64,000 nucleotides of DNA from assembly GCA_050084515.1 (NCBI GenBank), contig CM114271.1, forward strand, positions 3,038,001-3,102,000. The letters are read 5' to 3'. Under the pieces are notes generated by a model. The model was given only the letters and a program-made list of their open reading frames with translations, ran no database searches and was not told the origin of the DNA. Both the position numbers and the translations under genes were made by a program. Every line of letters begins with the position of its first letter. Position 1 is the stretch's first letter. The DNA comes from Blasia pusilla. Its lineage: Eukaryota. This document shows positions 1,946 through 59,930 of the stretch, one piece after another.

Positions 1946-2728
1946 GGGGGCTGGTATTTTGGCAGGAGAGAGTAAGAGAGGAGAGGAAGAGAGGAAGAGA
2001 GGAGAGTCTCTCTTCAAAAAAAAGGGCCAAATCCGCCTCCTCTCTTCAAAACTTTTTGATAGATTTGAAATTTTCGTTTGCTTTCAAATTCAGGAAATCT
2101 TTAGAAGAGAGTAGGTAGTGGTCAACATTTGGCCCTAAAAAAAAAGAAAAAAAAAAGTAGACATCATAAGACCACTACAAACTTTTTTCCATCACTCTCC
2201 ATGTGAGCCTAAGTTTCTTAACATTACCTGTCTCGGTCTACAAAAAGCAATGCCCATGGGTATTTTTGTTGGAGGACCACCCGGATGCCAACCTCTCTTT
2301 TTGCAAGGATTGTTTGCATCATGGCCTCCTGAATTTCCCCATAACCAACTTTTTGGTTATGAATGGTGTCTGCTCAAGACCAACTTTGTGAAATGTGAAC
2401 ACATGAGAGGATAATTGAACCAAAAGATTGTTAGTATGCTGGAGTAAAGAGGAACTGATGTCCCTTCATTCAGATCCTAAAGCTGAGAAACCGAGAAGTG
2501 CACCTCCCAACCCGTAAGAAAGCTCACCATAAGAAAGGAAAGATTTTTAGAAGTGATTTTCTTCCACGCACCCACAAAAATCTAACAAGTTGGGAATCGA
2601 AATGGCAACGAGGTAGTAGGAATCTGCACATCTTAGACAAGAAAAGAAGCCTACAACTAGTTTGACGAATGAAGGGGAATGAGCCAAAAGTTAAGAAGCC
2701 CGCCACAATGCGTCAGAAGTTGGTCTCA

Positions 2729-3680
2729 CAGGGAAAGAGTCCGATCACTCAAGCAACCAACCTGTCGGAATCGGACAACTTGCCTGGAAATGGTTAAAAA
2801 GTTGCAGTGGGCAAAAAGCAAAAAGTTGCAACCCGTCGGAATCATACGGGTTGCAAAATTGTAATTCTGAGTAGCTAAAAGAACACAATCCACAAGTCCA
2901 AAAAAATATTCCAGCAAACTTTTACAAACACCATTATGGGTTGAAAAAATCTCGTCCTTTATTACCTCCAAAGGAACCTCGGAAATGTACATTTGACCTA
3001 GTCTATGATTTCTTCAGCCTTGTCATGTACAAATTTACTCCTAAGGTGTGATACCAAAGGAATGTCCTGGGATACAAGTGGCTCCTCGGCCGATTGTAGA
3101 CGGGGATCAAAATGTTGGCGAGTCGAGAGCCTTGGCCCCCCCAAACGCCATAACGGTCCCATGTAACCTGATTTGAGTCCCCACCGCCTTCCTCGAGATA
3201 CCTTGTACGCTCTACAATGTGACACCCATCCAAGTATCAATATGTGCTCTGTCCTTGGTAATACCATTATGGCAATCGCACAGGTAGTAGGAATCCAACA
3301 CGTATGAGAGAAGAAAAGAAGCCTACGCCTGCCTTTACGAGTTGAGGGGAAGGTGCCAAGGGAAGAAGCCCCCGAGACTGCCTCTTAAGTTGGACCAATA
3401 GGGAAAGAGTCCGATCAGGAAACCTCTCGGAATCCGACACGTTGCTTGGAAGTGGTAAAAAGGTGTTGTCGTCAAAAAGTGAAAACTTGCAAGCAGGAGA
3501 AATCCGACGGTTTGCAAAATAGAAGTCCGCGGAGTTCATAGACAATCACATTCGAAAAGACATAAAAAATGTTCAACAAACTTTTACAAGCACCACCATC
3601 ATTCGAAAAAATCATCTCCTTTATATCATCCGAAAAAAGCTCGGAACTGTACATTTGATCTATTCTATGAAATCTTTTGC
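2729..3680. repeat. Diverged ~280-bp direct duplication (about 2730-3020 and 3400-3680), each copy with two palindrome units
   Basis: Shared AGGGAAAGAGTCCGATCA, CAAACTTTTACAA, GAAAAAATC and TGTACATTTGA blocks. Confidence 0.8.
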
Positions 3681-4365
3681 CTCATCATTAAATAGCTCCC
3701 TACTCCAAACGCTGCAGTCAAGCTGGGTCCTTGAGTTCTTTGAACTCACTCGTCATCGTCCGAGAGCTCTTGCAAAATTACTTTCGGCCTTGCCCTCACG
3801 ATTTTCAGAATCATTGGAAGTGACGATGGAGTCACTACCAATGGTGGGTCTTGATCCGGAGCTCTCAGCTTTGGTGGAGAGTTGTACGCCCCAACGAGCC
3901 TTTCGTATTCTGCCTTTGCCTCCTTGCAAAGGTCAAACAGTTCTTGCCTTCCTCGAGGCGAGAGAATGTTCTCGGCACACTGCCAGCGCCTTTGATACTT
4001 GCCCCTGAAAGTCCCACTAAGTCAAACACCAAGTCACCCGGCCTTGAGCAGAGCTCGATGAGCGTTTGCATCAAGGATGGCGACTTTTCCCTTCCTCCCA
4101 GAAGTGGGGTACCGTCTTGCATGTAAATTCCTGGGGGGGAAATTATACAAACTATCTAAGCTGCACCCATCTGAGCATGGATCCACAGGATCCTGGATCT
4201 TGAACACCTGGAAATTATGCTCGGGCCGAACAGCAGTAAATGTAGGAGTGGTCCATCTGTAAAGAACCACGTTGGAAACAATGTCAGCAACTTGGCATAA
4301 TGTGCAACAAGTCATCAAAGAAGTCGGCTTGACCCTAGAGAACTTTTTTCAATTACTAACTTTGG

Positions 4366-4733
4366 AGCAACCTGTCGGAGTCCGACGGGTTGTTTGTCCC
4401 TGACCAACCAGTCGGAAGGCGACGGGTTGGTCAAGGACGGGTTGGCTGGCCTAGAGCAACCCGTCACTTTCCCACGGGTTGCAGCTTTCCAGAAACACAA
4501 GGAAAAACCAAAAGCAACTGAAACCCGTCTGGTTCTGACGGGTTGCAGCTACACCATGGTTTTCCCTGTGTTTCACGGAAAGATGCAACCCGTCGGGTTC
4601 CGATGGTTGCAGGTACACCACGGTTTTCCCTGTGTTTCTGGAAAAGATTCAACCCGTCGGAAACCGACGGGTTGCTCTTAGCCGAGCATGGGCTGCTCTA
4701 AGCCAGCAACCCGTCGCCTTCCGACGGGTTGCT
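4366..4733. repeat. Array of ~7 palindromic 27-bp units in predicted intron 3 of the ParB-MTase gene
   Basis: For example GCAACCCGTCGCCTTCCGACGGGTTGC and CAACCCGTCGGAAACCGACGGGTTGC, mostly 55-65 bp apart. Confidence 0.92.
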
Positions 4734-6799
4734 CACGGACAAAAACATCAGAGATATACTATCTGAAATTCACACGCACTGAGATTATACTACAGGAATT
4801 GAGCCTTACCCGAATCTCACTCGTCGCGGATCGGAGTGGGTACTTGTTTTTTATGATCCACAATTGCGCCGTCCTCCACTTTAGCGACCTCTTGACACAC
4901 AGGAGGTTGAAGAGCTCGTCCTCGCTCCCTCCAGTCAACACTAAGAATTCACTCGATGATAGGCGCCGCAAAGAAAGGAGAACAATAGCGCGATTTGGTC
5001 ATAAGAAGAGCGGCACATTCGATCAAGTACCCGTCCGACGGATTCTTGCCCCCGATCGCAACCAGCGGGCGAGGGCAGATCAGCCATCAAGAGATCCACC
5101 GCAACCTCTTCGACCACTCCATTCACCGTCCAGGCATCATGCGTGTTTCGTTGGAGCTTCCGTCCCAACGTTGACAAGCGTCCTCCTTCAGTTCACTCCT
5201 TTACTGGATGAAGGAGTGAACTAAAGGAGGACGCTTGTCCGGGTCGTTGTTTGTCATGTCTTCCCAAGGATGATGGATGTATTCTCCTTGGGACAACATT
5301 GGCACCTCTCGCTTCCGCTTCTCCCGAGTCATGACGGGACGGCTTGTCGGGGTCTCTATGAAGACTATGGTGGGGTTTTTTTCGCCGAGGACCTGGTCCG
5401 ACCCTCTCTCCCCGCTCGCCCAGACGATTCCGCCTCTGGCCTTGAATCTTCAGCCTCTCTTTGGGAAGACTTGGCCTCGGAATTTTTCCCTCCCCTCCCC
5501 TTGCCTTTGAGACCATTTGTGGATTTGTCTTTGGTGTGCGGACCTTGAAGCCAACTTATCTCGTGGGCTTGCTCTTCCGCATCTCCTCCTCGAAGTCTTG
5601 AGTTGCACAAAATTGGGGATGTCGATTCAGCATCATGAAGCACTCATAAATCCTTATTAGTGATGTCTTCAGGGTCGTTGAAGTCAAGCCAAATGGGGCA
5701 ATTCTCCACCTCCCAATCGGACATGTGAAGCCCCATCTCCATGTCGTACATGGAGAATGTCTCTCCATGAGGCGGCGAAGCCCACAATTTCAAGGCTTCC
5801 GGTAAATTTCCCAGTGTACTGCATTCTTACTTTGGACAAGGTACCAAGACCATACGTTAGGCGCTTTTACTCGAATGAATCGGCCGTCTGCAAAATCTGA
5901 GATCTCGCTTCTTCTTTGCTTGATCCCGTTTGTTCCCCTCGATTTCTTTGTTAAGCATCGAGGGAGGACGCAAACCTTGAACATTGTCTTGAATCCTGGG
6001 GTTTTGATTGGCTTGTCCCGGATGTCTTCGAGCCAAACCTCAAAATCTACAGAACTTTCAAGGTTTGCTTCATCCGGAATGGGCTCTTATCTTTTGAGCT
6101 CCGCTTGCATCATCTAGCACGGACTTCCGATAACCCACAATGGTGGGAGATCATCGATTGGACACACCAGAGGATGGTGTGCCGCCCTCTTCTGGGCCTT
6201 TGTGCCCTCGAGACTGATTTTCATCAGTCGGATCCTCCTAAATTCGCTTATGCAGGAAAACGCAAACCGATGCACGCGATCCAGGGACACTTTCTCCCCA
6301 ATCCGACCTTGCGGATCTTCATCCCTTTTCCGCTCGCGCTTGATAATCGCCTTTAGCTCCTTGTAAAACTCCTGATCAAGTTTGGGGTTGAGAATGCTGA
6401 TGTATCGCTGCATCTTGCTCGCCATGTATTTCGTGGCTGCAGATACTGCAGCTTGGATGAATTCCGCGCGCTTAGACCCTAATACTTTCTCCCTCCGCTC
6501 CAACTCCAGTGCATCGCTCTTCTTCGCGGCCTATATCTTCGACCAGCAAAGGATGGTTACGGCTGCATCTTGGGAAATAAACTTATTTGCCCAAGTTTTC
6601 TTCTTTATCTATGCATCCTTTGCAAGCATCTGATTTACCAGGGCGTCGCCCAAGAACCCCTTGTACTCTTCCGGGTGCGTCGTAAGCACCTTCTTCACCC
6701 GATCGCAGTCTGGGATCCAATGGTGGGTGACATTCCCCTCCGATACAATCCTGCACATCCAAACTCAATCCGTCAGAAAAGTTTTAAGTTACATGGGTT

Positions 6800-7448
6800 C
6801 CTGCAACCCGTCGGATTCTAGCAACGAGCTAAATGATGCAACCCGTCGAAGTCCGATGGATTGCATTCACATTTGTGAATGCCTGGTTTCAACCCGTTGG
6901 ACTCCGACGGGTTGTCAGATATTCCGTATCAAATGTGAACATAGGAACCCGTTGGAGTCCGAGAGGTTGCGCAATTGAATGGAAACTTGCAATTTGACAC
7001 GAAATTTGCTAAACCAACTTCCGAAGACAACCCGTTGGACTCTGACGAGTTGCTTTCAGCCAAAAACATAAAAAAAACCTCCAAACAGTTTCGAGTCAAG
7101 CAACCCGTTGAACTCCGACGGGTTGCTTTGGGCCAAAAACATACTAAACATGTGGTCAGTCGAACAACTGGTCGGAGTCCAACGAGTTGCTTTCTTCAAA
7201 AAACATCTTGAAAAGGCGGCGATTCGAGCAACCCGTCGGACTTGGACGGGTTGCTTTGGGCCAAAAACTTACTAAACCTGTGGTCAGTCGAACAACTCGT
7301 CGGAGTCCGACGAGTTGCTTTTGGCAAAAAATTACCTAACCCATTCATCAATCGAGCAACTCGTCGGAGTCCGACGAGTTGCGTTTGGCCAAAAGCATCC
7401 CAACAACAAGGCAGACCCAAACAACTTGTCGGAGTCCGACGGTTTGCA
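6800..7448. repeat. Array of ~11 palindromic units in predicted intron 2
   Basis: For example GCAACTCGTCGGAGTCCGACGAGTTGC, about 64-bp period in the right half. Confidence 0.92.
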
Positions 7449-8919
7449 GCAAGAAGATACTTACGTGTTCATGGCATGCATTGCCATCTCCATCGTTGCC
7501 ATGTGATGAGGGAATGGATGAAGGACCACTGCCTTCACGCAAAAATGTGCCTCCAAGGAGTTGGGCCGCTCCTCTGCAAACTTGGTCCATGCCATGAACC
7601 TGTGATTTCCATCCCAGATGAAGAAATACAGATTCCTCATCTTGCTGAATTCTATGCCTTGTACTTGCCTTCTGAAATCCTGGTCTCTCATCCTCCGGAA
7701 TGTGTCGAGCTTATCCAAGTCCTCCTCCGTAACCAGGGCTTGGGTTCCATGCTCGTCGTAAGGCTGAACATAGAAGGGAGGAAAGTTGTTGACGTAGGAT
7801 GCTGTCGCCGCCGATTGTTTAAGCTTCGCGATGTCCTCGTCGGACTGAATTTCGCGGACGTATTCCATTGTCCGCAATCGGCAGAGTGGAATCCTCGGGG
7901 CGTTGTGGCCCTCCATCAGTGCCATCTGCATTACCACTTGTCAGAACCGGGACAAGATCAATAAGCTACACTGAATTCCCAATGAATTGCAATTCACATA
8001 ATTCAAAAAACCCAGATCCTCTCTTACCCGCTCGAAAATTGGGTCCGTTTCTTGCCCAGCCAACTTGTCTGAGACGGCAGCTGGCAAATCGACTGGGAAC
8101 TCGTTGATGCGATAGAGGTCGATGTCTTCCGCCGGGCTTGGAGACGAGAATGACCACTCTCCGGCTTCTTCGGCAATATCCACCATCTCCACGCTGGCGG
8201 TCCTCATGACCTCATCGTCCGTGATTTGAACTTTTGGCGTTTCCGCTATGTTGATTGTGTCCCCGGACTTCATCGGGGACATTTCCCGCATCTCAACACT
8301 TTCGGTTGGACGGGCAGGGCTGTCGTCAATGGCTTTCGCTTTTTCCCTCCTCGCTTTAGCCAATTCTACTCTCCTCACCGATGCGTCCAGACGCTTCTTT
8401 TCTCTCTTTTCGTCGGCGATCCTTTTCTTCAAGGCCTACGATGTCTCAGCCTCTGCATTCTGTCTATCGAGCGCCTCTTGAACACGTCTCGCAAGAAGCT
8501 CCTGGTTGTGCATCTCCGCTTCCCTTTCCTACTCCTTGATTTCCTACAGCCTAATTTCATTTGCCGAACAAGGCCCTGGAGATGCTGACTCAGGAGTCCT
8601 AATGGACTTCGGAGTGAAGCTCCCAGACTTGTTTGCTTGAGATTTTTTCCTCGTCATTTTTCCCGGAAATGCCTCCACCTATGTCCTCGATGAATCGCTT
8701 GATCAGTCGCCTTGCTGATGTCGAGATGAGTCGCCTTGATGGGAAGCTCGAATCGTCTTGCGATCGTTGAAAAGCCGAACCGTCTCGCTCTCGTTCCCTC
8801 GTATCGACTCGCGATGACTCGCCATGTGAAACGCCCCTTGGTATTTGATCAGCTGCTGCGCGGGAGAGAGAGGAATGGAGATCGCGAAATGAGAAACCGG
8901 AAATGAGCGATTTCAGCCC

Positions 8920-8927
8920 TATTTATA
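8920..8927 (-). promoter_or_regulatory. Candidate TATA box for the ParB-MTase gene
   Basis: TATAAATA on the minus strand, about 260 bp upstream of ATG 8657 and next to the central palindrome array. Confidence 0.5.
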
Positions 8928-9016
8928 CTTTTCTAGCCGTTGGGCTGACCGTTGGGTCCCGTCGTCCTTTTGACGGTGACGTGCCGACCGTTACGGAAGT
9001 CCGGACGTGAAAAATG

Positions 9017-9770
9017 GCAACCCGTTGGAGTCCAACAGGTTGCGCGCCTCGCCGTCCTGGGAAGATAACGCGAGGTGCGCCAGCAACCCGTCGGAGATCG
9101 ATGGGTTAAGCGCCTCCGCCGTCTTCGGACAAGAACGCGAGGTACCCGCGCAACCCGTCGGAGACCGACAGGTTGTGCGCCTTCGCCATCTTCGGACAAG
9201 AACAGGGCGTACCCGTGCAACCCGTCGGAGACCGACATGTTGCGCGCCTCCGCCGTCTTCGGGCATGAATGGGACGTACCCGTGCAATCCGTCGGAGACC
9301 GTTGGGTTGCACGCTTTTCTTGTCAAGGGTTAATTACGTGGGCTTTCCGCGCAACTCGTCGGAGCCTGACAGGTTGCACGCTTCCTTCATGTAAGCGAAA
9401 CAAGGCGAGGCCCTTGCGCAACCCGTTGGAGGGCGACGGGTTGCACGCCTCGCCGTCTTTGGGCAAATAGGTGCGGCACCCGCGGGACTCGTCGGGAACA
9501 GACGGTTTGCACGCTTCTTTCATGTAAGTGTTACACCGTGAGATAATTGGGCAACCCGTCTAATGCCGATGGGTTGCAAGCCTCCGGCATCTTCGGGCAA
9601 GAAGGATCGGTATCCGAGCAACTCGTCAGAGAGCGACGGGTTGCCAGCTTCGACCATGTTTGCGTTTGAAGGTAAGGCAGAAGCGTGCAACCCGTCCGAA
9701 GCCGACGGGTTGTAGGCTTCGCTTAGCTTGGGTTAATTGTTGAGTTACCAGGACTCCGACGGGTTCCAAA
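9017..9770. repeat. Central array of ~12 palindromic units between the divergent genes
   Basis: GCAACCCGTCGGAG..CGAC.GGTTG units at about 9017, 9083, 9149, 9216, 9283, 9350, 9417 and onward, a 66-67-bp period. Confidence 0.93.
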
Positions 9771-9959
9771 AAAATGAAGTGTGATTCGCAACCCATGTCT
9801 CTGCTTCCCAAATCTGGTAACACATTGCAACAGAATTGGATCCATTGTGTTAGACAATGTCACCTACCAAACTTCATCTTATCAGTAAAAATCTGTCAGG
9901 AGTGATGTTTTCCTATTCACTACAAATTAAAAATTCTCACTCTCAACAAAATTTTGGGA

Positions 9960-12900
9960 ATGGATAATTATGTGAAGCTTACTTTGTGGCGAGTCATCGC
10001 GGCCCTTCCTCAATCAGAAATCATTCGACCGCAAGCTCGTGAGTCTTTCATAGTAGTGGATGAAAATTTTCTCTCTGTTCGATTTCTTCTCCAAATTGGA
10101 ACCATCTTTGTATCCAAAGATGTTAGGGTGGACGGTACGGAAGACATAATAGGTGAGACAGTCCAACCAGTGACTGCAGACCATAAAGTATGGAATCTCC
10201 TACCTCTAGCAAATGGTCAATACAGAGTTCTGGCGTGTTCTGATCGTCTGTTTAAACAGACGAATTGAGGAAACAAAAATACTTGGGAAATTTCCCAAGT
10301 AGACGGTGGAGAATTTCCTAGTGCTCCGAGCTCTACGTTTGCAACTCCTAGCTCAGTACATCCGGCTTTGACTCCAATCTCACACGCTCGTATCATTTTT
10401 GTTCTTCCTGACGAGATTCCGGATGTTATCAACCTCAGTGGATGTGTCGGACACCAACCGGGCCCTCCGTCCGCCTACTCGTTCCTCTTGCGAGTATCAG
10501 GCAATAGTTTGCTTTCGTCTCTGGCCTTGAAAATGTTCAAGCACATTCTTGTCAATGAGTTGCCACCCACGTACGATGGTAATTGCATTTTTGAGTTGCC
10601 TCCACTTGCTGCTCCTGCTCAAAAGAAAGATGGAGGACGCCTGAAGGATATGGATAGAAAGTTTGATTGTCATCGATGGTGCAGGCTTCAACGGACTAGT
10701 GCTTCAATTCCAGATGGTCCTTGGATTGTCTCCCGCCGCCAATGCGTGGGAGCCTTGGAGTGTAGAAGTCCAGCATGCCCGTATCTAGAGCGCAACGGGC
10801 GAGTCAATACGTCGTAATTCCCCCCCCAAGAATGAGAAACTCCATACGAGGTCGGTGCCACCATACCGCCGGGAGGCCATCGATGTCCTCATTGTCAGGC
10901 ATCGCCCTTCTGCGTTGGAGCGTGTCCTGCATACATATTTTTCATTGTCCACGAATTGGGCTCCACGCCGAGTACACAAGGTGGGAGTTCATGTTGGCTC
11001 CCACACTCATCCTGTGACCGATGCAATTCAAAGACACATCAAGGAGGATGTGGCGAAGAAAGTTGCCGAGGTCTACAGAAACTCTCCGGGTTCAAAGCCC
11101 GGAGTGATCAAGCTCACAACGACATCACAAATTTGTGAACAATTTCTTGGAATCCCTAGACAGGGCGAGATTACGGCGGTTGAGGAGAAACAACTCTGGG
11201 AAAATCTCGCATTTCTCGCTGATCCTGAATGCTTCCGGAATTTGCTGTGTCAAATACGAGTTCTGGATGGAAAGACGGCCGAACTGGATGCCATCGCCAT
11301 AATCAAGGCCAACTCCAGATTTCCATTCATTCACAGATGGCAGTTCATGGGTCTAGGAGGCAAGGGATCCATGGCCTATGTCTTCAAAATGTCAACCACA
11401 TGTCGGTCGAGTGGCTTCGATCTTTCCGGCAGCAAGGTAAGCTTTGATATTTGCTACAAAGTGCTGAACGGATGGTTGACGATGGGTACTCACGTTTATG
11501 ACCATATGGAGAAGGAACTCAAAACTATATTTGTGTGTGAAGTAAAGGCAGAAGACGTTGGCAGTTTGAAGATGTGCTCGTTACTCTTATTGGAGGTGGT
11601 GAAGGAAAACAAAAGGCCACCTCCGAAAATTTATGGGTTCATGGCAGACAATGCACAACCTAGGTGGATTGCTATCCGGGAAGTGTTCTGGGGGAAAGGT
11701 TGGATGCTTTCCATTGGCAACAGTCTGTGACCCGGTACACCAAATCTTGCATCAAGGAGAATAATAGGACAGAGCATGTGACTCTACTCCAACGCTGCAA
11801 GGATAGAAAAACCTTGAAGCAGGCCATGGAATGCCAAGAAGAACTTTATGAGACAATGGGGAAACTTCATGCGGCAGGTGAGTTCACTATTTTGTCTTGT
11901 CAAGCTCACGCAAAGAATTGTTTGTAAAGTTGCAGCATCAGGTTGAGAAGCGTAGGAACTATAGGGATTTCAAACCGAAGAAACCAAGCAAGCTCTCACA
12001 TGCGATGGGTTGCCCGAGTGTGCAACCCGAAGGAATCAGACGGGTTGCATCCAGAATTTTGGTGCAACCCGAGTGTGCAACCCGACGGAAACGGACGGAT
12101 CGTAGAGTTGTTCATGGGATGCCTCGGCCTTGCAACCCGTCTGAATCCAACGGGTTGCAATAGGTGGGTTTAGGGTTGCAACACGTCGGGACCCGACGGG
12201 TCGCAGAGTCGTTCATGGGATGCCTCGGCCTTGCAACCCGTCTGGTTCCGACGGGTTGCAGTAGGTGGGTTTAAGGTTACAACACGTCGTGACCCGACGG
12301 GTCGCAGAGTCGTTCATGGGATGCCTCGGGCTTGCAACCCATCTGGTTCCGACAAGTAGCTTATGTCTTTGACTGCTGAGTTATTTTCGTTCCCTTCTAA
12401 TATTGCCGTCGTTGCAGGGATTGAACGTTCATGAAAATGCCCTCTGCCCCAACACAAGTGGAGCAGAAAGTGTTCATTCCTCCTGGAGGTCGTCACAAGC
12501 ATGCCAACGAATTTCACTTGTGGAGGCAAAGATGCACCATCCCATATCTTCCTCACAAAAGGCATAACAAAAGGAAGGGGGCCGTTGATCTACGAGCTCT
12601 ATGTCAGGGCGGCTGTGAGATCTGATGATGAAAAAATGTATGTGGAAGCCTTCAATCGGTGCGTAGCTGGAACTCCCCTTGAGCAAGACGTACACATTGG
12701 TGGGGATATTCGTGGGCGGGTTTCAAGATGTCCCATACAGATGGTGGTAGAGCAGTCCGAGCGAGACTCGTGGAGACGAGATAAGTATCTTGACTTCAGG
12801 CAAGTGAAGAGGCAGCATCGAGGAACGAATTTGGTGATTGATTTGGATGAGGAAATTATGCCGCCCAGGTATTCAGGGACCCCGGACCCGTCCCAAATCC

Positions 12901-13888
12901 GTGATTGAGTTACTTCTCCAAAATCAGTGAATGTTTTATTTCAAAAGCCCTCCGTTGCTGGAAGTTCGCAACATCCTGTCACTGGGGTGGTTCAACAATA
13001 TGGGATTCCGGTAATGGAGGTGAATTGCAACCTTAAACGGTGGCATATATCTCGGAGCAACCCAAGACATGGACCCACCTGTAGGGCAGGATCTGATGGC
13101 ATAAGGAGAGCATGCGGCACTTTCCTACATAAGAACTCTACAAGGATTGGACGACCACTGCCTGGGTTTTGGGGACTCAAAACCTTTGATCTTTTCACGA
13201 GGACCGGGGATCAATTGAAGTGCTTCTTCTGCCCAAATGAATCTTTGCGCTTTCCGGAAGTCTTATCCGGCTGCCATTGGAGCTCGGGGAATACCCCCAC
13301 GATTTGGCCCATCGCCGCAGGTACGAACTGCACTCAAGACGAAGTGGACAATCTTACAAGTGCCGGTTTTACACTCGTAGACGGGGGAAGTTTGGAGCAA
13401 GTTCGCATTACAAAGGCCTTTGCATTTTGTATTCAACCCAAGATTGATGTCAACATGTACCCGGAGAAGGTGGATGATCTCAATCCATTATTTCTGTTTG
13501 AGTCTAGAAATGGGGTGAAGAGAAACAGAATGTGTAGGCCAACGGTGGAGAGAGCAAAGCGAATTGCATCAGCTCGGGAGGAAAAATGGAGATCATCGCC
13601 ACGAAATATGTCTCGAGTGGCAATGGAATAGGAAGGATGTATTGGGTCAGGAACAACATTGTAAATTCAAGTGTCAGAGGGGTGTATGTGGTGCACATCT
13701 GTTGCTTTCCCACATGTTCATGTGATGACTTTTTCCAAAGAGAGACAAGTGGCAAAAGGTATTTCCCTTGTAAGCACATGTACTATGTGTTGCTGGTAGT
13801 TTTAAGAGAGTCGGAGGAAGGAGTAGGAATCCACCAACCAATTCTGTCCCTCAAAGAAGTGCGAAGTATTTTAAACAAACCACTTTGA
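9960..13888 (+). pseudogene. MULE-type DDE transposase with N-terminal Cys/His zinc-binding region and C-terminal SWIM finger. Intron 11878-12417.
   Basis: CVGALECRSPAC...HVGSHTHP, then SFD, GFMADNA, FHWQQS and PNTSGAESVHSSW (putative D-D-E), then SWIM CSCDDF...PCKHMYYV. Stops and frameshifts present. Confidence 0.85.
12000..12356. repeat. Array of ~7 palindromic units, including a ~101-bp higher-order tandem, in the transposase intron
   Basis: GCAACCCGTCTGGTTCCGACGGGTTGC. The block GTTCATGGGATGCCTCGG recurs at about 12110, 12211 and 12312. Confidence 0.9.
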
Positions 13889-14286
13889 GGATGCAAAATG
13901 AGGTTTTAGATTGTACTTTTATTTTTCCTGAACCTTCACTTTGAGCTTGAACTCTATTAAGCCCGGGGCAAATGATAGATTTTTTCGAGATCTTGGATGG
14001 AAAAAGTGATTGATTCCACACTTATGATTCCACTGATTTTTCAGTTTTCTAAATTTTGTGCAATTTGTAACTCGTCGGACTCAGAGGGGTTGCCAAAATA
14101 TGGAAGAGGAAAAAAAAAACTGTGGGACTACTTAATATATGAACAAAAAAGTGCAAAAAAATTCAAACAAAAAGTTTCGTCTCTTCTACCCAACGGAAAC
14201 TCTCTTCAAAAAAAAGTGTCTATTTCGGTTGAAGGTAGTTTCCTCTCTCCTCTCTCCTCTCTCTTCCTCTCCTCTTACCGCACCTC

Positions 14287-16953
14287 GCTTTCCCTTACTA
14301 AGTCAGGTGTAGAAATATGGCATGATTGCTGATTTACCAACAATTTTGGAGTGTCGGATACATATGAAGCTTGTATGATGGGCGAGCAACACCGAAAACC
14401 ATTTCCACAAGAGTTCAGAAATAGAGCAAAGGCTCCTCTAGAGCTGATTCATGCTCACCTCTGTGGTAAAATGAGAACAGTGGCATTAGGTGGTTCTTCC
14501 TACTTCTTTTTAGTTGTCGACGATTATACTAGGAAGATGTGGGTGTATTTCCTTTGTGATAAGGCAAGTGCTTTTGGAAAATTTAAAGTATGTCACAACC
14601 TGGTTGAGAATGAGACAAGAAAGAAGATACATAAGCTTCGCATCGATTGAGGAGGAGAATTCTTATCAACAGAATTCAAAAAATATTTGGAGGAGCATGG
14701 AATCAAGCGACTATCAACCACGGCACATACATCACAACAGAATGGAGTTGTTGAGAGTCGAAACTGTACAATGGTGGAGATGGCAAGATGTATGATCAAA
14801 GAAAAAGGTTTGACAGAAGGATTTTGGGCTGAAGCTGTTAATATTGCCGTTAACATTCTAATTAAAAGTGCTACCAAATCAGTGCAAGGCATGACTCTTC
14901 ATCAATCATACTCAAATAAGATACCATTAGTCCAACATTTCATGACTTTTGGTTGTGAGTGCTTTGTACATATTCTTCGAGCATCTAGGATCAAGCTAGA
15001 GTCCAAGAGCAGGAAGTGCATCTTTATGGGATACAATGATGAGTCTAAAGCTTATCGCCTATGGAGTCTTGAGGCTAAGAAGATGCTTGTGAGTCGTGAT
15101 GTGGTATTCCGGGAACAGCCTTTTTAAGTGGCGGATATCAGTGGTCCGTCCACATTATCATCAAACGAAGAGATAACCCACCAAAGCATACTACCAATGT
15201 TTACACCAAATCATCAAGAAGAAGAATTTGATGATGATTACAAAGAGTAGCCTATTCTTCCACTACGGTCATCATACCCTAAGTGGATAAAGCAGCTCTT
15301 GGATGGTAAGGATCCAGTATCAACTGATGAAGTTTTTACATATCCAAGGAGATCCAAGAGACTAGAGGAGCAGAATAGAGCTTCCACACATCTCATCAAC
15401 ATGGCCTTGATGACAGAGGTTTTGAAGGTGGAAGAGCCATCATGCTCGGATAAGGCCCTTTCTCATCCTCAATGGAGAGACGCCATCCAGATGGAGATGG
15501 ACGCTATTCAGAGAAATGAAACTTGAACTTTGGTTGAGAAGCCAAAGGACATGAAGATAATACGCACCAAATGGATGTACAAGACCAAGTATAAGTTGGA
15601 TGGTACATTGGATAAATTCAAAGAGAGGTTGATTGCACAAGGGTATTCACAAATCAAAGGTTTTGACTACTATGAGACTTTTTCTCCTACTGCAAGGATG
15701 AAAACCATTCAAATTGTTCTAGAGGTGGCACGAACAAGACGTTGGCATGTATACCAATACGATAAGAAGTCTGCTTTTCTGAATAGGAGTCTCTAGGAGG
15801 AGGTGTATGTATCTCAACCACCAGGTTTCGAGACACTCGGATGAGAAGAGAAAGTGTGTTTACTTCATCGAGCATTGTATGGGTTGAAGCAAGCCCCAAG
15901 GATATGGTATCAACAAATAGATACATTCTTTGGAGAGAAGGGTCTCATCAAGAGTCTGTCAGAAGCAAATTTGTATGTGTTTTGCGAAGATGGGATGTAT
16001 ATGTTGATAGTCATGTATGTGGATGATCTGATCATCACACGACACCATAGTAAGAAAATAGAAGAAATGAAGGGAGTGTTGAAATCGAAGTTTGAAATGT
16101 CAGATTTAGGTCTTTTGCACTACTTTATAGGGCAGGAGATTTGGCAACAATCAGATTCTATTTTTCTCTTTAAGCAAAAGTATGCTAGAGAAATCTTAAA
16201 GGCATTCGAGATGACTGAGTGTAAGGTAGTGGTCTCGCCAATGGAGGTAGAGTTGAAACTCTCAATGGAGGATGTTTCACCATTGGTAGATGAAAAGTTG
16301 TACAAAAATCTTGTAGGCAATTTGATATTGTGTGTAACACTAGACCAGAAATTAGCTTTGTTGTGGGAGTGTTGAGTAGGTTCTCAACTAAACCTCATGA
16401 GAACCATTGGAAGGCAGGGATGCGCATGTTGAAGTATATCAAAGGCACTATCGAGTACGACATCACCTATGGAGCACGGACAGAAATAATACCTTTTTGT
16501 GACTCAGATTGGGCAGGAGTTTCAGATTCTCGGAGATCAGTTTTGGGTTATTGCTTCTTGGTAGGATTTGGTGTGGTGCCATGGGTCATCAAGAAGCAAC
16601 CTATAATGGCTCTTTCTTCTACCGAGGCAGAGTACAAGGCGGTTTCTTATGCTTCTTGCGAAGGAATATGGTTGAGATGGATATTTGAGGACATAAGAGA
16701 AGCACCAGAAAGTGCTATTGTAATATGGTGTGACAATCAGAGTTGCATTGCCACAGCACATAATCTTGTGTTTCATGCTTGTATAAAACACATATAGATC
16801 CAGTATCATTTTGTTTGTGAGTTGATTGAGAGAGAGGTTTTGAAGTTAGTCTATTGGCCAACAGAGGATAATTGTGCAGACATCTTCAAGAAAGCATTGA
16901 GCGAAGATCAGCTTCACTAACATCTGAAGGATCTTGGCATTGGTCCAAGATAG
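14287..16953 (+). pseudogene. Copia integrase, reverse transcriptase and RNase H
   Basis: PLELIHAHLCG, VDDYTRKMWVYF, QQNGVVE, RALYGLKQAPRIW, YVDDL, CDSDWAG, ALSSTEAEY. Confidence 0.96.
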
Positions 16954-17387: not shown

Positions 17388-20300
17388 TATACCTCTTGCA
17401 CTCCTAACACTTGCAAGGAAAAGATTATATAAATATGTGCTTCTCGTTAGTATAGCTCGTTGAGTCAATATGTTGTAAGCCAGAATAATTGCAAATAGTC
17501 AGAGAAGTGAACAACCCGTACGGATCATAAAAGATTCTTCAAAGAAAGAGAACACTTATCTGTCATCCTCAAGAAGCCCCAATTGGATAGCAACTTCCTT
17601 GAATGTTGGACATAATACTCCATCAACAATTTTCAAACATTCGTATATAATGGCTCCTCGAACATTATGGAGGAGAAATCTCAACCAATGACATCCTCCT
17701 TCACCTATGAATGAGTGATATAAATTAGCTCATCCCTTTCCATAATAATTCACTCACTTGACAGAGTGAAATATAAAACCAAAATCCAATGTACACAAAA
17801 AAGCATTCACTTGGTTAAGTAGTGTATGATTGGGCAATGGGATGGCCACAACCATTTATTTTTGTACCCTATGAATCCATCTTTTTTTAGTTCGACGATA
17901 ATATGAAGGAAAATATGTATACAGATATTGTCGACTCTTGGACTCAGATAGATTCGTTGCGAATCGTTGTATTAGAGTTGTCTCTCTATTCAGTTGCAAA
18001 ACATCTTATGGGGTGTCAACATCATTGAAGTACACCATTTGATGCTCTGGAAGATGAATAGCTAATCACATAATACTTGGAAGTTCAACATGTAGACTAA
18101 ACTTGAAGAATCGCCAACATGCCTCCAAAGAAGATAATCATAATTCCAAAAAAAAAATCCTTAATCAATAAAATTATTCCTCGCATCAAGATATGACGTT
18201 GTCTTATCAATGACTTCCATTGCGGTGGATGTATTCATATCTTTTGGAAATTTAAATGTCACCACATCGGATCCCTTATGTACATAATTATATAAGTATT
18301 TTACGATAGAAACACTACTTATGATCTCCAAATTAATGTGACAATTAAAGAGGGCTAATAACATATGATTGTAGGATACGACCCAACGAATGCTCATGCT
18401 TGGTTATTTCCCTCTTAGTCTCCAATCTACAATTACAATAAAAGATCATGAGTACATTAAGGTCATATGGCTTACAATAATAATAAAGAAACGCCAAGAA
18501 AAGAAAAAGAAAAGATCCTTACCTGCTATAGACTGGGTAACCATCTTCAGTCTCTATAGTGTTGGGTGCAAAAGCTTTATGATAGCCTTTGGTACACTTT
18601 TTTGTTTCCTTATACATACATGGTGCATTTTGATTCTATGATCCACATTGCATGTGAAGGATGCAATTAGCAACAGTAGAATACAACATTAGGTGGGTAG
18701 ACTTATCCGGAATTTTTGCTGAAATGATACGATTATAATCAGAGGTAGTACGTGGTTTATCCTCATGAACTAAAATAATAAGAACATGCACATGTGGAAA
18801 ACCTCTTTTTTTGGAATTCCACCACATGGATGCATCCAACGAATTGACCCAATATTTTCTTGTTAATCATAAGTCGTAATAATTCCTTTTTCTTCTTAAA
18901 AACCCGCACAACCAAATCAATTAGGTCTACAATTGATTGACCGGTTAATAAGGCTGATCTAATCCTCTCCCACTTAAGATTGCATGTCATGGTCAAAAAG
19001 TAGTTAAGCTTTTCTAATTGTCTCATAATTGCTATAGCATCTTGATAAAATTGATGCATATGATGGGGCCCTCGAGTAAAATAAGAGGATAATACAATGC
19101 GTCTCCCAAACCTTCTACTGTCCATATCATGTCGATGCATGACATCCTTTAAACCTTGATATAATTCAGCCCTCAACTCCTTCTGATTTAAGCAGACCCA
19201 TTATAATCTTTGCATCTCTACAGTGGCATAAAGGTCAAACATATACTCTTGATTAAGTGGACTAAATCTCAATAAGCGATCGTTGTCTTTACCTCCAATT
19301 CGCGTTTGAAGTAAAAAATATGCAAGTGCAAGGCTATAACACTCATTGACCTTATTTCCACAATATTATCACCAACAAATGTTTCCTCATCCATACAATT
19401 TTCTGAAGGATCAATATGTTCCTCCTCCCCATGAATAACATGGCCTATTCGTGTGGGTCTTTGAGTCCCTTCGAGTCTCCCAAAGTGTATTCTGAGATGC
19501 CAACGTGCTTCACCATAGATAAATAATACAACAAAGTGTAATGGAACATATGCTTCGTTGAGGTCAAACATGCACCTCCATGTAGTCGTACAATTATATC
19601 ACGATGGTTAATGTTTCACTTCCATCACCTGGAAAAATAGCTGCAACCTCAGAAGTAGTTGCTTAGTTATAATGCATTTCATTGAGACCTCTCTTACTTT
19701 CCTTGAGAATGATCTGCATATTAAGATCAATTGCTTCATATGCCATATGACGGAAGATCTTCACAAATGGATTGCATTCATGCAACATCTCTTCTATCCC
19801 TTTCAAGATGTTTATGTTAAGATTAGAAGATCTAGACACAACGCGTCCACTTTTCTCAATTTTATTTACAATATCATGAATATAGAGCCGAGCAAATTGG
19901 GGATGCCCCCTATATCAGGATGTAAGGGTCCATTAGAATGACAAATTCCTCCTTGGATCCTAAAGTGTCAAATGCCACCAACTTGTTCATTTACATGCAC
20001 ACTAGTAGATGCAAGTTGAAGTGTTGGATTGTAAGTGCGAGCATGTGTAAGGGAATGAAGACTTCTAGGACCAACACCCAAAATCAACGGTTTAAAAAAT
20101 GGAGGAGATAATTTCAAGAGGGGCAAATGTATTCTCCAAAGGCCACAACACATGCCATATGGTGAGTAACTAAACTTTTTACCTTTGACAATTCCACATT
20201 CCCAATGCAAGGCAGAACATGATGGGCATATTTTTGTCATAGAACCCAACGTATGATAACAACTGGTACGACTCAAACCCCTTTGTAATCGCAACTTCCT

Positions 20301-46800: not shown

Positions 46801-49800
46801 AGACTCCACCTGGGGTAAGGGGGCGTTCATCGCTGAAGACAAAGTCCTCTTTATCAATCTCGAATGGCTGACGAGAAGCCCGAACAAGAGAATCCCATGG
46901 AACGATTCGAACTCTCGATGGACCAATGGAAGCGTCGGAGGAGACACATGAGAAAACGATGTCTGAAATGATGAAACAACGGATCATTGGCATCATGGGC
47001 AGCGCTTCTTTCCAAAAAGTGCGATGCTAGGCTATACCTACGCTACAGGTTTCATAGTTTCGATTGCCTAGCCTTTGGTCAGCACAGTCGTGAACCGTAG
47101 GTATTTACCCCTACGGTTTATCGAGAGTCCTCGAACGGGACTCTCGATAAAGATGTGAATGCAATGGCTCCTTGGAAAGATGCGCCTGTGAACGAATGCT
47201 TGAGTGTTCCATATATCCTTAATTCGGTCGTATTTCTTTCACGACCTAGCAACACGGCAACGACCAAGCAAGCACTTTGTGTGTTGATTGCATCATGGCT
47301 CCCCAAGGCTCACTCAGAATTTGGATGAGTTAGCGTCAGGTTCTTAGAAAAGGCCTGCTGCTAAAAGCTACAAGGCTCGACGGGTTGAGGACGGAATGTG
47401 AGAGGACATTCCGAGAGGCCAATTGTAAACCTTAGAACAATTTTTTAAAAGACATCTCTGAGACAACAAGTTTGAATCAAACGGATAAACAATTCTGGAG
47501 GACAAGACATTAGATAGTCAATTGTGTAACTCTCGCTCACATTGTAGACCGATCTTGGTCGTGGAAAGATATTACAATCCTAAACGGTTCTCCACGACTT
47601 ACCGTCTGGGATCTCCCTAAATGACGGGATACGTTTTCATTTGACTCTGTAAAAGAACAGGAAGCACTGCACTCCCACAAAAAGATCTCGTCGGAGGGGA
47701 AAAGCGCTTGTGGAGCTCATCCGAATGGAGAACGATCCCCGCAGTCCTTAAGATTCGCGTAGAGAAGTGTATGTTGACCGCTTCTCTTTTTCTTCTCTTA
47801 AAAAATTTTCCTTCCGTTTTGTTTATTCAATAAATTGCACGAGCTTTTATGGCACCTTGGGAGTGCAATATACAGGTGCTTTGACCACTTCATCTTTCTT
47901 TAAAGTCAAAGCACAAATCTACCTTTCAATGATAGATCGTGTTACAGATTTTAGGTGACCATCCAACACTACGGCTAGCCTTGTAGCTGAATTAAGATCG
48001 GAAAAGAAAAGTGACCGTGTAGTTCTCCGGTTTGGCAATGCGCTCTTCAGCGATCGCATTCCAGTCTCGTGACCCTCGTAGAAACCATTCATCGTTGAGC
48101 TGGTTGGAGCTAGGACACATTCGGACGAAGAACGAGTTACTCCGCTGCCATCCCTCTCTTCATGACATTCTTTTCACCTCAGGGTAGTTATCACAAATCT
48201 GGAAAACATTAAAACTACATGATTGACTCTCGTCTAAAAGGTGAACCACTGTAGCGTTCATAATTCTTATCACATTTCACCAAAATATCTACGCAAACTT
48301 GCTGGGAGCCTGGGACTCTGGGAGATTCATTGTGTCCTCGTCATCTGATGACGTCACTAGGATTGTTGCTTGCACAGTGGGGGAATCGGGGGATTTGCAC
48401 CCCAGCAGGAATAGAAAGAGTAATTGAAAGGTGGAAGGGGGAGTTGGGGAGGGGGAGTTGACTGGATTGATGCATATTAGTCATAATGTAATCAATGGAG
48501 CATTATTTTCCCCCGGTGATATGACATCCAAAAGTGGAGAAGCAAATATAATGCGAGTGTCACCCATACACTTCCGAAGTAGTCCTTTCTCAATTGAATG
48601 AATGACAGATGCCTTTGTCTTTTACTGTTCTTGAAGTGAAATCAATTCGAAAGACGGACCGACCCATTTCCACGTCGATGGGAGAGAGATGGGACTTTGG
48701 AGTCCATTCAAAATCCTCGGGAGATAATACTGCGGTTGTAAAGTACATGGGGGAAGTACAAAGCTCCTACGTGCTTGGCACCGCTTGCACTCTGGCAAAC
48801 AAAAGTCCTCTGAGACATCTTCCTGGAAAGAGAGCAAAGCAGATCAGTATTTCGAAATGCCGAGTGAGTGTAAGTAAAAGTGTGAGCGAGGCAAATAAGT
48901 AAGTGGACCCCTGAAGGCAAAGGTCGCAGAACTCTCGCCTTGCCAACCCCGGGAAAAAGCAATTTCTTAGCTGCTCTCTCTCATTGGACTGCACCGTGAC
49001 GTGGGCACCGTCCTGACGTGTAGATTGAGAGGGATGACATCGATATTAGCCTGGACTACGGATCGATCTTACCTACCGTCACGATTTTTTCACTGTTCTT
49101 CGTATAGCCTAGGTTTGGATTCGCTCCCGGAGCCATGTTGTCACTGCGATTGTACGCCACTCCTGAAACAGAACCAGAGCGAAAATTGGCACGCTTAAAA
49201 TGAAAGAAATTGGGAATCAGTGCTGAAACGCAGGGTCACACATCTTGAAAGACAACCATGGTGTCTCCATAAATCCCCGATGATAGAATATTAATTTCTT
49301 GAGAAGGGGACCGTCCGTCTGTAGAAAAGAACAAGGAAAGTAAACAATGGAGGATTAGACCACGTGCAGGCTGGGTCAAGCAGGCAAGCGTTTCCTTGTT
49401 GCCAAAGGAGATTTGTCTTCTGAGCGGGAAGTTAGGCCACCCGGACCTACTAGCAAATATAGAAACAGGGTCCTAAACAAGGGCGAGAAAAATCATGAAA
49501 ACGCCTGGGAGAGTGTCGTCGCCCAAATTACCACGAACAACCGTGTAGGCGTACCGCGTACTTTGCTGGAAAACAGAGAGGTCAAGATGCTTCGCTTTCA
49601 GAAGTTCCATAGGCCAAGCTTTTCAAAGCGTGTCCGACCAGTGAATCCTGACCAGGAGCTACGCAGTACAGTCGCCAGCGCTTTGATTGTCGCCGCGCCC
49701 GGAATATCATCATCATCATAACCGGTCGATCATTTCCCGCCGGCTGGCAACAGTTCGGCTCAGCGTGCCCGCCGGGATGGTCGATGAGCGAGCGGATGAA

Positions 49801-59165: not shown

Positions 59166-59930
59166 TGTCGTGCGTATACACATCACTACACAACATACAT
59201 CGCTGTCATGGAACACACACATAAATATGCACGATCCCATGCTAATTCATGGCATCCAAACCACTAAGACAAGGAGTACCAAAATATCTCCAAAAAAATA
59301 AAGTCAAATCTCTCTCAACATCTCATACCAAGCTCTCCTTTGTGTGCATCCTCTCTCATGTAAAAAAAAACCCAGTCTCCTAATGAGAAGCTTGGATTAC
59401 ACACACAAGGCAAGCAAGACCATAGTTTCGCTGCCTCATGCCAAGAGGTTCAACAAAGAGAGAATGAGCTCTCAAGCTCTCTCTTTTGGAGGTATATCCC
59501 TTCCCTCTCCCAAGTCCTCTCCATGATAACGTGTGCTCGCAGGTCACCTCCTTGGCTTTGGACCTGCTCTAGCGGATCAAGGGCCACTTCCCAAAGTGGA
59601 AATTCAACTATATTCCAAATGGAAACTTACCCGAAATAGTAAGTTTCTCTATATGACTCCAAATGAGCCGAAACGAAGGAAAAACCTGCTCTCTCACGTT
59701 ACCCGTGGCCTCAACAGGTCATCCTCAACCTCTTGAGGTTGCCCTCCAGTATCTCCGAAGGTGCTCTACTAGATCTCGCTGATCTATCCTAAAAGATGTA
59801 ATAGTTGTCATGCCCATACACATCGCTACACAACATACATCATTATCACTGAACACACACATAAACATGCACAATCCCATGCTAACTCATGGCATCAAAA
59901 ATCGAGATGAGGAGTACCAAAATATCTCCA
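59166..59930 (-). repeat. 3' LTR of gypsy element 1 (A-B-A structure)
   Basis: Minus strand TGGAGATA...ACGACA, homologous to 61339-62094. Confidence 0.8.

Follow-up and report, generated by a model that had tools for sequence, protein, structure and literature searches.

The DNA considered here is a window of 64,000 nucleotides (64 kb) from Blasia pusilla (assembly GCA_050084515.1, contig CM114271.1, positions 3,038,001 to 3,102,000 of the forward strand), and all coordinates below count from its first letter. The window carries a DNA transposon with two divergent genes, a transposase gene on the plus strand and an accessory gene on the minus strand, both of which contain stops and frameshifts in the present copy. 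A 27-bp palindrome, GCAACCCGTCGGAnTCCGACGGGTTGC, recurs in the non-coding parts of this element. We conclude that the palindrome is real, is confined to one transposon family, and is constrained as sequence. The element is made up of the following features.

1965-14280: the whole DNA transposon, about 12.3 kb, inserted in a Copia retrotransposon, which it splits
1965-2005, plus strand: left terminal inverted repeat, GA-rich, aligning to the reverse complement of 14240-14280
2560-3700: left subterminal unit of about 650 bp in two tandem copies, with palindromes at 2757 and 2828 in one and at 3419 and 3489 in the other
2757-3515: left subterminal cluster, 4 palindromes
3700-8830, minus strand: accessory gene with stops and frameshifts; its open reading frames include a ParB/Srx-like exon (7461-7940) and a methyltransferase-like exon (3865-4155)
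4367-4732: array A, 7 palindromes, in candidate intron 4335-4809 of the minus-strand accessory gene
6803-7447: array B, 11 palindromes, in candidate intron 6751-7464, which follows the ParB-like exon directly
9017-9767: array C, 11 palindromes (9017-9713) and a single half-site, in the spacer that separates the starts of the divergent genes
9960-13888, plus strand: transposase gene, degenerate, with a zinc-finger region at about 10690-11010 and a catalytic core at 10789-11730
12002-12360: array D, a half-site and 7 palindromes (12022-12360), in candidate intron 11878-12417 of the transposase gene
14067-14093: right subterminal palindrome, a single copy with 4 mismatches
14240-14280, minus strand: right terminal inverted repeat, CT-rich

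At no more than 3 mismatches the window holds 18 matches to the palindrome, and 100 dinucleotide-preserving shuffles hold none. When up to 8 mismatches are allowed and the best of overlapping matches is retained, 41 non-overlapping copies are found, nine of which have 2 mismatches, nine 3, eleven 4, four 5, six 6, and one each 7 and 8. All of them lie within 2757-14093, and none occurs at this threshold in the remaining ~52 kb of the window. The original prediction, which had estimated about 40 copies by eye, is thus borne out both in number and in the places of the six clusters, and the possibility that the motif is common outside the element finds no support in the window, where 0 of the 41 copies lie elsewhere. 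A 12-base half-site, searched at no more than 2 mismatches, has 73 occurrences within 1965-14280 and a single one elsewhere in the window, at 47377. Only two half-sites of the element stand alone, at 9756 and 12002, and both are at array edges.

The six clusters occupy three candidate introns, the spacer of the divergent genes, and two subterminal regions. The introns (4335-4809, 6751-7464, and 11878-12417) are GT..AG candidates read from the sequence, and RNA sequencing run X19 lists no splice joint across any of the three. It had been claimed that the palindrome is placed only in introns, the central spacer, and the ends. The spacer and the candidate introns stand, and the ends do not, as the outermost copies are subterminal and lie ~790 and ~190 bp inside the insert limits. 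The right subterminal copy, when reverse-complemented, aligns to the palindrome at 2828 together with ~100 bp internal to it. From one end of the element to the other, the cluster centers (2800, 4550, 7100, 9350, 12200, and 14070) follow each other at fairly regular distances of 1.8-2.9 kb. Tandem Repeats Finder reports a 64-bp period for array A over 4522-4675, a 64-bp unit with a 128-bp higher-order repeat for array B, a 67-bp unit with a 134-bp higher-order repeat for array C, and a higher-order period of 101 bp (55 + 46) for array D.

Within the arrays, the palindrome is kept much better than the DNA around it. In MAFFT-based alignments of in-register units, pairwise identity is 0.82 for the palindrome versus 0.49 for the spacer in array B (seven units), 0.76 versus 0.53 in array C (eleven units), and 0.78 versus 0.52 in array A (three units). 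An ungapped sliding window puts the best-conserved 27 columns at a start of column 20 in array B and column 21 in array C, where the palindrome itself starts at column 21; in this alignment of array C one unit is one base off register, which depresses its palindrome value to 0.68, and the MAFFT-based identities are preferred. Between arrays, over 662 pairs, palindromes are 0.71 identical, and the 10-base flanks, at 0.28 and 0.23, are close to chance. These values bear out the earlier observation that flanks differ between arrays while the palindrome is kept, and they show the palindrome to be more conserved than the adjacent spacer.

Information content is highest at A3, A4, C5, G8, T9, A19, T24, and G26, lowest at positions 13-15 (position 14 is free, and 13 and 15 are the weakest), and falls to ~0-0.4 bit, which is background, at positions 0 and 28; since copies were picked by their likeness to the consensus, the inner values are inflated, and the register-based identities are the fairer measure. 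The consensus letter is kept in 40 of 41 copies at A3, in all 41 at A4, in 39 at C5, in 40 at T24, and in 39 at G26. That the outer arms are better conserved than the center had also been noticed, and the profile agrees. Selection on the palindrome, rather than a neutral satellite, is supported.

Perhaps the arrays are nevertheless a functionless minisatellite that grew from a motif of the terminal repeats and was homogenized by unequal exchange or gene conversion. The higher-order periods of 128, 134, and 101 bp are what such a process would leave, and unit numbers do vary between copies of the family. In DNA run X1, contig depth in the array bins is, for example, 425, 932, 410, and 2,211, compared with roughly 2,000-43,000 nearby (roughly 3-100 times lower), which fits spacers and unit numbers that differ from copy to copy. 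However, conversion of whole units would homogenize spacer and palindrome alike, yet spacers reach 0.49-0.53 where palindromes reach 0.76-0.82. Furthermore, five arrays with unrelated spacers (0.23-0.28) share one 27-mer, and relatives of the accessory gene have palindromes of other sequence at comparable places. We regard the minisatellite explanation as very unlikely.

The copies show 160 departures from the consensus in all. C>T and G>A changes account for 71 of them, and 35 of the 71 fall at the four CpGs. This is the pattern expected of cytosine-methylated, decaying DNA in a dead copy. Because the CpG-rich palindrome is still better kept than its spacer, the difference in conservation predates the death of the present copy. 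Among 40 of 1,036 differences from other copies in the sequencing runs, seven lie in array regions, and five of these fall in a palindrome or half-site (4649, 9102, 9108, 9713, and 12006). At these five positions other family copies carry the consensus letter. Together with the C>T and G>A departures, this implies that the sites of the family at large are closer to a perfect palindrome than those of this decayed copy. Array C is unusual in having 30 departures in its right arm and 13 in its left, whereas departures are balanced between the arms in the other arrays. Either one of the half-sites is the more important in array C, or a center-right variant, GGAGACCGAC, was copied along it.

A palindrome can be kept because a protein reads it or because its two arms pair, and the original prediction left both options open. 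By the second explanation the palindrome would be an RNA or DNA hairpin, acting as intronic stem-loops, a source of small RNA, or cruciforms. Its consensus does form a perfect 13-bp stem, and three of the arrays are in transcribed introns. However, a stem of 13 bp is short for dicing, array C lies outside both gene models, and the arms show no sign of covariation. Standard pairs fill 81.7% of 507 pair cells in 39 aligned copies, compared with 81.5 ± 0.7% when the 3′ letters are shuffled, and 209 of 500 shuffles reach the observed value. Changes on both sides of a pair occur in 10 cells versus 6.2 ± 2.3 in shuffles (36 of 500 reach 10), and the covariation score is 0.137 versus 0.122 (52 of 500 reach it). 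Thus no compensatory maintenance of base pairs above the shuffle level is found among the 39 aligned copies in 500 shuffles, and the covariation between arms that the original prediction invited one to look for is absent. Symmetric changes in both arms do exist, as had been reported, in the form CAACTC...GAGTTG (C6>T/G22>A) at 7164, 7292, and 7356. All three are in array B, at alternate positions of its 128-bp repeat, so they may represent one event that was then copied, and three of the ten two-sided cells belong to this one lineage.

The wobble-type mismatches likewise show no preference for the transcribed strand. In array A, which lies in the minus-strand gene, one such mismatch would pair in the RNA of the gene itself and five in the opposite RNA; in array D, in the plus-strand gene, the numbers are three and nine, and in array B they are 13 and 11. 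Pairing no higher than in shuffles and the lack of a wobble bias toward the transcribed strand mean that the arms are kept for their sequence and not for their ability to pair. We therefore consider a selected hairpin highly improbable. On the evidence of these alignments, the pattern points to a sequence-specific protein site made of two half-sites, and it is this part of the earlier proposal of a dimeric-protein site or hairpin under selection, along with selection itself, that survives.

RNA from the family bears on where the arrays sit in transcripts. Run X19 has 430 reads on the element, and 354 of them are less than 95% alike, meaning that these reads come from other family copies. First mates map to the plus strand over the left (accessory) gene and to the minus strand over the right (transposase) gene, which would reflect divergent transcription if the library is reverse-stranded. 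Arrays A, C, and D have almost no coverage, with a depth of 0.14/0.07 in the array A bin (4405-4805) versus 8-14 in the adjoining exon bins, and of 0/0.08 in the array D bin (12024-12424) versus 2-6 beside it. Two non-canonical joints without GT..AG, supported by 11 reads each, run from 3258 to 3707 and from 11988 to 13210, the latter removing array D and the exon after it. Internally deleted copies may be the source of these transcripts.

Each arm of the palindrome holds CCGAC, the core of the plant dehydration-responsive element/C-repeat (DRE/CRT), and the arrays might accordingly serve as sites for a host transcription factor that makes the element stress-inducible. The letters in question (GTCGG at positions 8-12 and CCGAC at 16-20) do match the consensus in 30-39 of 41 copies. 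However, the outer GCAAC/GTTGC, superfluous to a reader of CCGAC, is kept as well or better (39-41 of 41), and the palindromes of two related loci, L002 and L005, lack CCGAC altogether. A host factor as the reader is scarcely plausible. The center, GGAnTCC, was separately considered as a GANTC methylase site, presumably of the CcrM/HinfI type. This idea was rejected, as GANTC is present in only 16 of 41 copies, conservation is lowest at the center, and GANTC is missing from the palindromes of L002 and L005.

Two candidate readers are encoded by the element itself. The first is the accessory protein. Its exon at 7461-7940 contains a RIPLCR...FFIWDGNHRF block, the DGNHR block, which is conserved in 5 sequences. 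An AlphaFold model of this exon has low confidence (predicted local distance difference test, pLDDT, of 51.7), but a Foldseek search with it lists sulfiredoxin in its top 11 rows and, below these, ParB, Noc, KorB, SbnI, and PadC, with E values of 0.1-2. About 3.4 kb further down the gene, the exon at 3865-4155 matches motifs X-I of PF01555 (E 0.03, 14.7 bits against a cut-off of 26.7), and this exon block is conserved in three other lineages (L001, L003/4, and L006-8). An SPPH motif lies near 5778, upstream of the motif X-I exon. A search for DPPY-type motifs in the related loci revealed nothing conserved, and word-index protein searches, by single sequence and by alignment, found no longer fused forms of the ParB-like exon, which is weak evidence. 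The gene had been labeled a ParB-methyltransferase, and with both matches below threshold (PF01555 E 0.03; Foldseek E 0.1-2) the label is plausible but weak.

The second candidate is the transposase. It has 56 relatives among 1.84 billion representative sequences (best E 3.5e-30). Eight of these were looked up, and the six that are named are all proteins of two liverworts. Pfam gave no match at E ≤ 0.01, MULE (Mutator-like element) included, for 14 of the relatives. A language-model look-up (Atlas) returned ten named rows, all of them MULE, ZSWIM-RNaseH, SWIM, or FLYWCH, with a top score of 0.94. An AlphaFold model has a core with pLDDT 85-95, and its four best Foldseek rows all give ISCth4, a transposase of the IS256 family (best E 2.4e-3, probability 0.94). 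The relatives keep a Cys/His module, C..C...H.H, in the N-terminal region, which is presumably a WRKY/GCM1-like zinc finger. The SWIM domain PF04434 falls below the cut-off at E 0.085, and a CxC..CxH motif lies at 13706-13798 in the open reading frame 13538-13888. From these models and look-ups, we read the protein as a divergent transposase of the Mutator superfamily (Mutator/IS256 type) whose DNA-binding module is of the Cys/His type and whose SWIM finger is weak, in keeping with the transposase label it had been given.

Relatives of the ParB-like exon help to distinguish between these two candidates. They include four short proteins and 12 metagenome loci (26-45% identity, about 8 lineages). 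Neither a transposase homolog nor GCAACCCGTCGGAnTCCGACGGGTTGC at 7 or fewer mismatches was detected in the 12 loci. However, L002 has at least 6 copies of a different motif, GGTTTGGGTCGnnCGACCCAAACC, spaced by 32-34 bp in the 200 bp that separate the exon from the upstream end of the contig. In L005, an intron upstream of the exon contains an array with a 127-bp period and another with a 75-bp period, whose flanks are unrelated and whose common core is TTCGGCGCCGAA. A de novo search for palindrome families of at least 3 copies yields one family in L002, one in L005, and one in the element of the window, and none in L001, L003, L006, L009, L010, L011, or L012. The same search in the other 49.6 kb of the window yields one unrelated dispersed family. 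Thus the same accessory gene family is accompanied by different palindromes that are repeated in the same manner. L003 has an array of a direct 13-bp motif ~2 kb upstream. Three hairpin-like repeats (e.g., CATTCACACTCTCGGGAGTGTGAATG) at L003 4420-4520 and L006 2215-2300, ~1 kb downstream of the exon, were set aside because they look like part of another repeat and not a tandem array. Also set aside was an assignment of one relative of the exon, P0063, to DUF3723, an accessory gene family of fungal Starship elements. Language-model scores of 0.93-0.95 tie this protein to fungal clusters, and Pfam offers no support at E ≤ 10.

We propose that the palindromes are docking sites, each with two half-sites, for the ParB/Srx-like accessory protein of the element, and that tandem duplication has multiplied them; we put the chance of this at about even. 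The palindrome would be a cis-acting recognition site of this Mutator-like family, with half-sites of ~10-12 bp (GCAACCCGTCGG) that are read by a dimer. Tandem duplication would have spread the site to every non-coding part of the element, namely the three introns, the spacer that holds the divergent promoters, and the subterminal regions at either end. The reader would be the accessory protein, in which a ParB/Srx-like domain is joined to a methyltransferase-like part, and the arrays would act as parS does for ParB or as the VANC motif arrays do in VANDAL elements. At clusters 1.8-2.9 kb apart the protein could find 'self' and modify or regulate the DNA or chromatin of the element. Protein binding, the identity of the reader, and the effect of binding are all things that we infer.

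Several observations lead to this proposal. All 41 copies are in the element and none arises in shuffles, the palindrome is kept above its spacer, each arm is conserved without compensation, and half-sites are nearly always paired, which argue for a docking site. The accessory protein is favored as its reader because arrays A, B, and C and the left cluster, which together contain 33 of the 41 copies, are in the accessory gene or next to it, and because the L002 and L005 relatives have arrays of their own. The published passages on ParB-like genes of algal transposons and on VANC arrays (10.1101/2025.02.11.637652, PMC12477816, PMC5735166) favor the same choice.

A number of facts weigh against the docking-site proposal. 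Palindrome arrays were found in only 2 of the about 8 related lineages, and the metagenome contigs are short, so that a transposase may fall beyond their ends. On the transposase side are array D and the right subterminal copy, which fit a transposase as reader equally well. The assignment of the exon at 7461-7940 to ParB/Srx is weak: the exon has no match in Pfam, NCBIfam, or a PDB profile search, and no helix-turn-helix was identified in the accessory protein. ParB proteins that bind cytidine triphosphate (CTP) carry a GERR arginine patch, and the motif in the exon is DGNHR, unlike that patch. The methyltransferase part rests on one sub-threshold match (E 0.03) and one SPPH motif. Finally, the copy of the element is dead, and the covariation test therefore partly measures neutral decay after insertion.

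Given these facts, it is reasonable to consider whether the palindromes are binding sites of the transposase, contacted through its N-terminal zinc finger to bring the ends together in synapsis and to autoregulate the divergent promoter. Such an arrangement would resemble the subterminal motifs of TNPA in En/Spm and the MURA site in the ends of Mu. Palindromes are present in both subterminal regions, within the alignment of the terminal inverted repeats, one array is in a transposase intron and another in the shared promoter spacer, and the Cys/His module is retained among relatives. A recent preprint also argues, in the portion available, that transposases are sequence-specific regulators of their own copies, and it covers regulation by TnpA (10.64898/2026.08.24.746577). 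However, most copies (33 of 41) surround the accessory gene, the outermost ones are 190 and 790 bp inside the limits, and relatives of the accessory gene have arrays in loci where no transposase homolog was detected, with the caveat that those contigs are short. We consider the transposase an unlikely reader, though one to be taken seriously.

A docking site for the accessory protein can be compared with several known systems. Bacterial ParB-parS, KorB-OB, and Noc-NBS pairs use palindromes of 13-16 bp that are bound by a dimer with a ParB/Srx N-terminal domain, and a helix-turn-helix reads the site. Their sites are palindromic, often several in number, and often in or near the gene of the reader, as they would be in the Blasia element with the accessory protein as reader. 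In contrast, the palindrome here is 27 bp long, the nucleotide-binding motif is DGNHR, and no partition ATPase gene is present in the element. In the En/Spm (CACTA) transposon, 12-bp subterminal motifs are bound by TNPA. This system shares with the Blasia element many motif copies, in either orientation, that lie near the ends and across the promoter, and would share with it a reader that is encoded by the element and regulates it. The differences are that En/Spm motifs are 12 bp long and only subterminal, whereas the Blasia element has full 27-bp palindromes that are mostly internal and in introns.

VANDAL21 of Arabidopsis is comparable in layout. According to the accessible part of its description, VANC binds a 9-bp motif, YAGTATTAY, that is tandemly repeated in introns, intergenic, and terminal non-coding parts of the element (Hosaka et al. 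2017, PMC5735166). Motif and protein change together among VANDAL families, and repeat number is dynamic between copies (PMC5735166). Both are Mutator-like elements with an accessory protein and a short motif amplified in the same non-coding parts. In that part of the paper the 9-bp motif is not described as a long palindrome, and VANC, which leads to a loss of cytosine methylation, is not ParB-like. VANDAL/VANC can be viewed as a functional analog by the layout of its motif arrays, and not as a family to which the Blasia element belongs.

The closest precedents for the accessory gene come from algae, again as far as the available passages go. Plavaka elements of the red alga Bostrychia carry a ParB-like accessory gene, PAG3, fused to a 2-oxoglutarate (2OG) oxygenase (Petroll et al. 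2025, bioRxiv 10.1101/2025.02.11.637652). Tandem inverted-repeat arrays adjoin PAG3, the encoded protein is proposed by its authors to bind the element it comes from and to modify it, and Mutator elements of Chondrus also hold homologous accessory genes (10.1101/2025.02.11.637652). The likeness lies in a DNA transposon, a ParB-like protein with a nucleic-acid-modifying domain (both parts putative in Blasia), and inverted-repeat arrays beside the gene. On the algal side the partner is a 2OG oxygenase, the methylase is separate (PAG2, PF01555 + SET), and the transposase is of the Plavaka/EnSpm type, whereas the Blasia element has a methyltransferase-like partner, a Mutator/IS256-like transposase, and named relatives from liverworts, with arrays that extend to introns of the two genes and to the subterminal regions on either side. 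In Ectocarpus, Sola1-1_Ec32 has a gene for a ParB-like protein with a DNA methyltransferase (N4C or N6A) opposite its transposase (Dinatale et al. 2025, PMC12477816). The accessory gene there is likewise on the strand opposite the transposase and combines the two parts that are putative in the Blasia gene, but the transposase belongs to the Sola superfamily, the main text of PMC12477816 does not contain 'palindrom', and its passages on the element mention no repeat arrays. ParB-helix-turn-helix fusions to adenine methylases have been reported from chlorophytes and chytrids (Iyer et al., PMC4738411; statement taken from part of the paper). A full-text literature search whose coverage leaves most subscription journals outside found no bryophyte report of a ParB-like accessory system in a transposon.

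Self-recognizing, self-modifying transposon proteins have been shown experimentally only for VANC and TnpA, both in seed plants, and ParB-like accessory genes of algal transposons are a recent and purely genomic observation. The Blasia element would extend this algal kind to a Mutator-like family with liverwort relatives. What is new beyond the published passages is a defined 27-bp site, a quantified conservation of site over spacer, and evidence against a hairpin. Also new are two further lineages in which the same gene family has different palindromes, a signature of coevolution between protein and site. We speculate, as a distinctly unlikely extension, that a land-plant transposon has its own parS-like system, in which a ParB/Srx-like protein fused to an N6A/N4C methyltransferase loads at clusters every ~2-3 kb and writes a non-cytosine methyl mark or shields the whole element. 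If true, this system would be a device for self-recognition and anti-silencing that coevolves with the palindrome, and it could help to explain the very high copy number of the family in its host. Because the 27-mer is ready for use as a binding probe and transformable liverwort models exist, the role of ParB-like proteins in eukaryotic transposons is directly testable.

That copy number is apparent from sequencing runs. One DNA run of the same species label has 129,520 contigs on the element, and two other organisms carry it at 85-99% likeness. The number of left subterminal units is polymorphic in the family, as contigs in run X7 and run X10 leave out 651-701 bases or step back by 626; these contigs come from the two other organisms.

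The limits of the element follow from the Copia retrotransposon that it interrupts. On the left are a Copia gag domain (PF14223, E 2.4e-12) at 721-1107 and a zinc knuckle and 'WHERIVHLSF' up to ~1940, and the integrase SH3 domain (PF25597) and RVT_2 resume from 14651, so that Copia parts span 721-1940 and 14290-16372 and the insert limits fall near 1965 and 14280. These limits are approximate, and two nested elements are possible. Mutator/MULE transposons have long terminal inverted repeats and target duplications of 8-11 bp. Here the inverted repeat is ~40 bp and GA-rich, with patchy similarity inward, and being of low complexity is weak evidence taken alone. Beside the ends is an imperfect 14-bp direct repeat, CACCTAAGCTTTCC (1930-1943) and CACCTCGCTTTCCC (14281-14294), a candidate target duplication seen in one copy only.

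Two minor observations concern the rest of the window. An unrelated 24-bp imperfect palindrome, GATCCCATGCTAATTCATGGCATC, has three copies near 59244, 59884, and 62047 and is probably in a dispersed repeat. A Helitron_like_N domain (PF14214, E 4.4e-26) at 18766-19200 on the minus strand marks a Helitron fragment a few kb to the right of the element, which, together with the split Copia and the DNA transposon, makes the window a nest of transposons.

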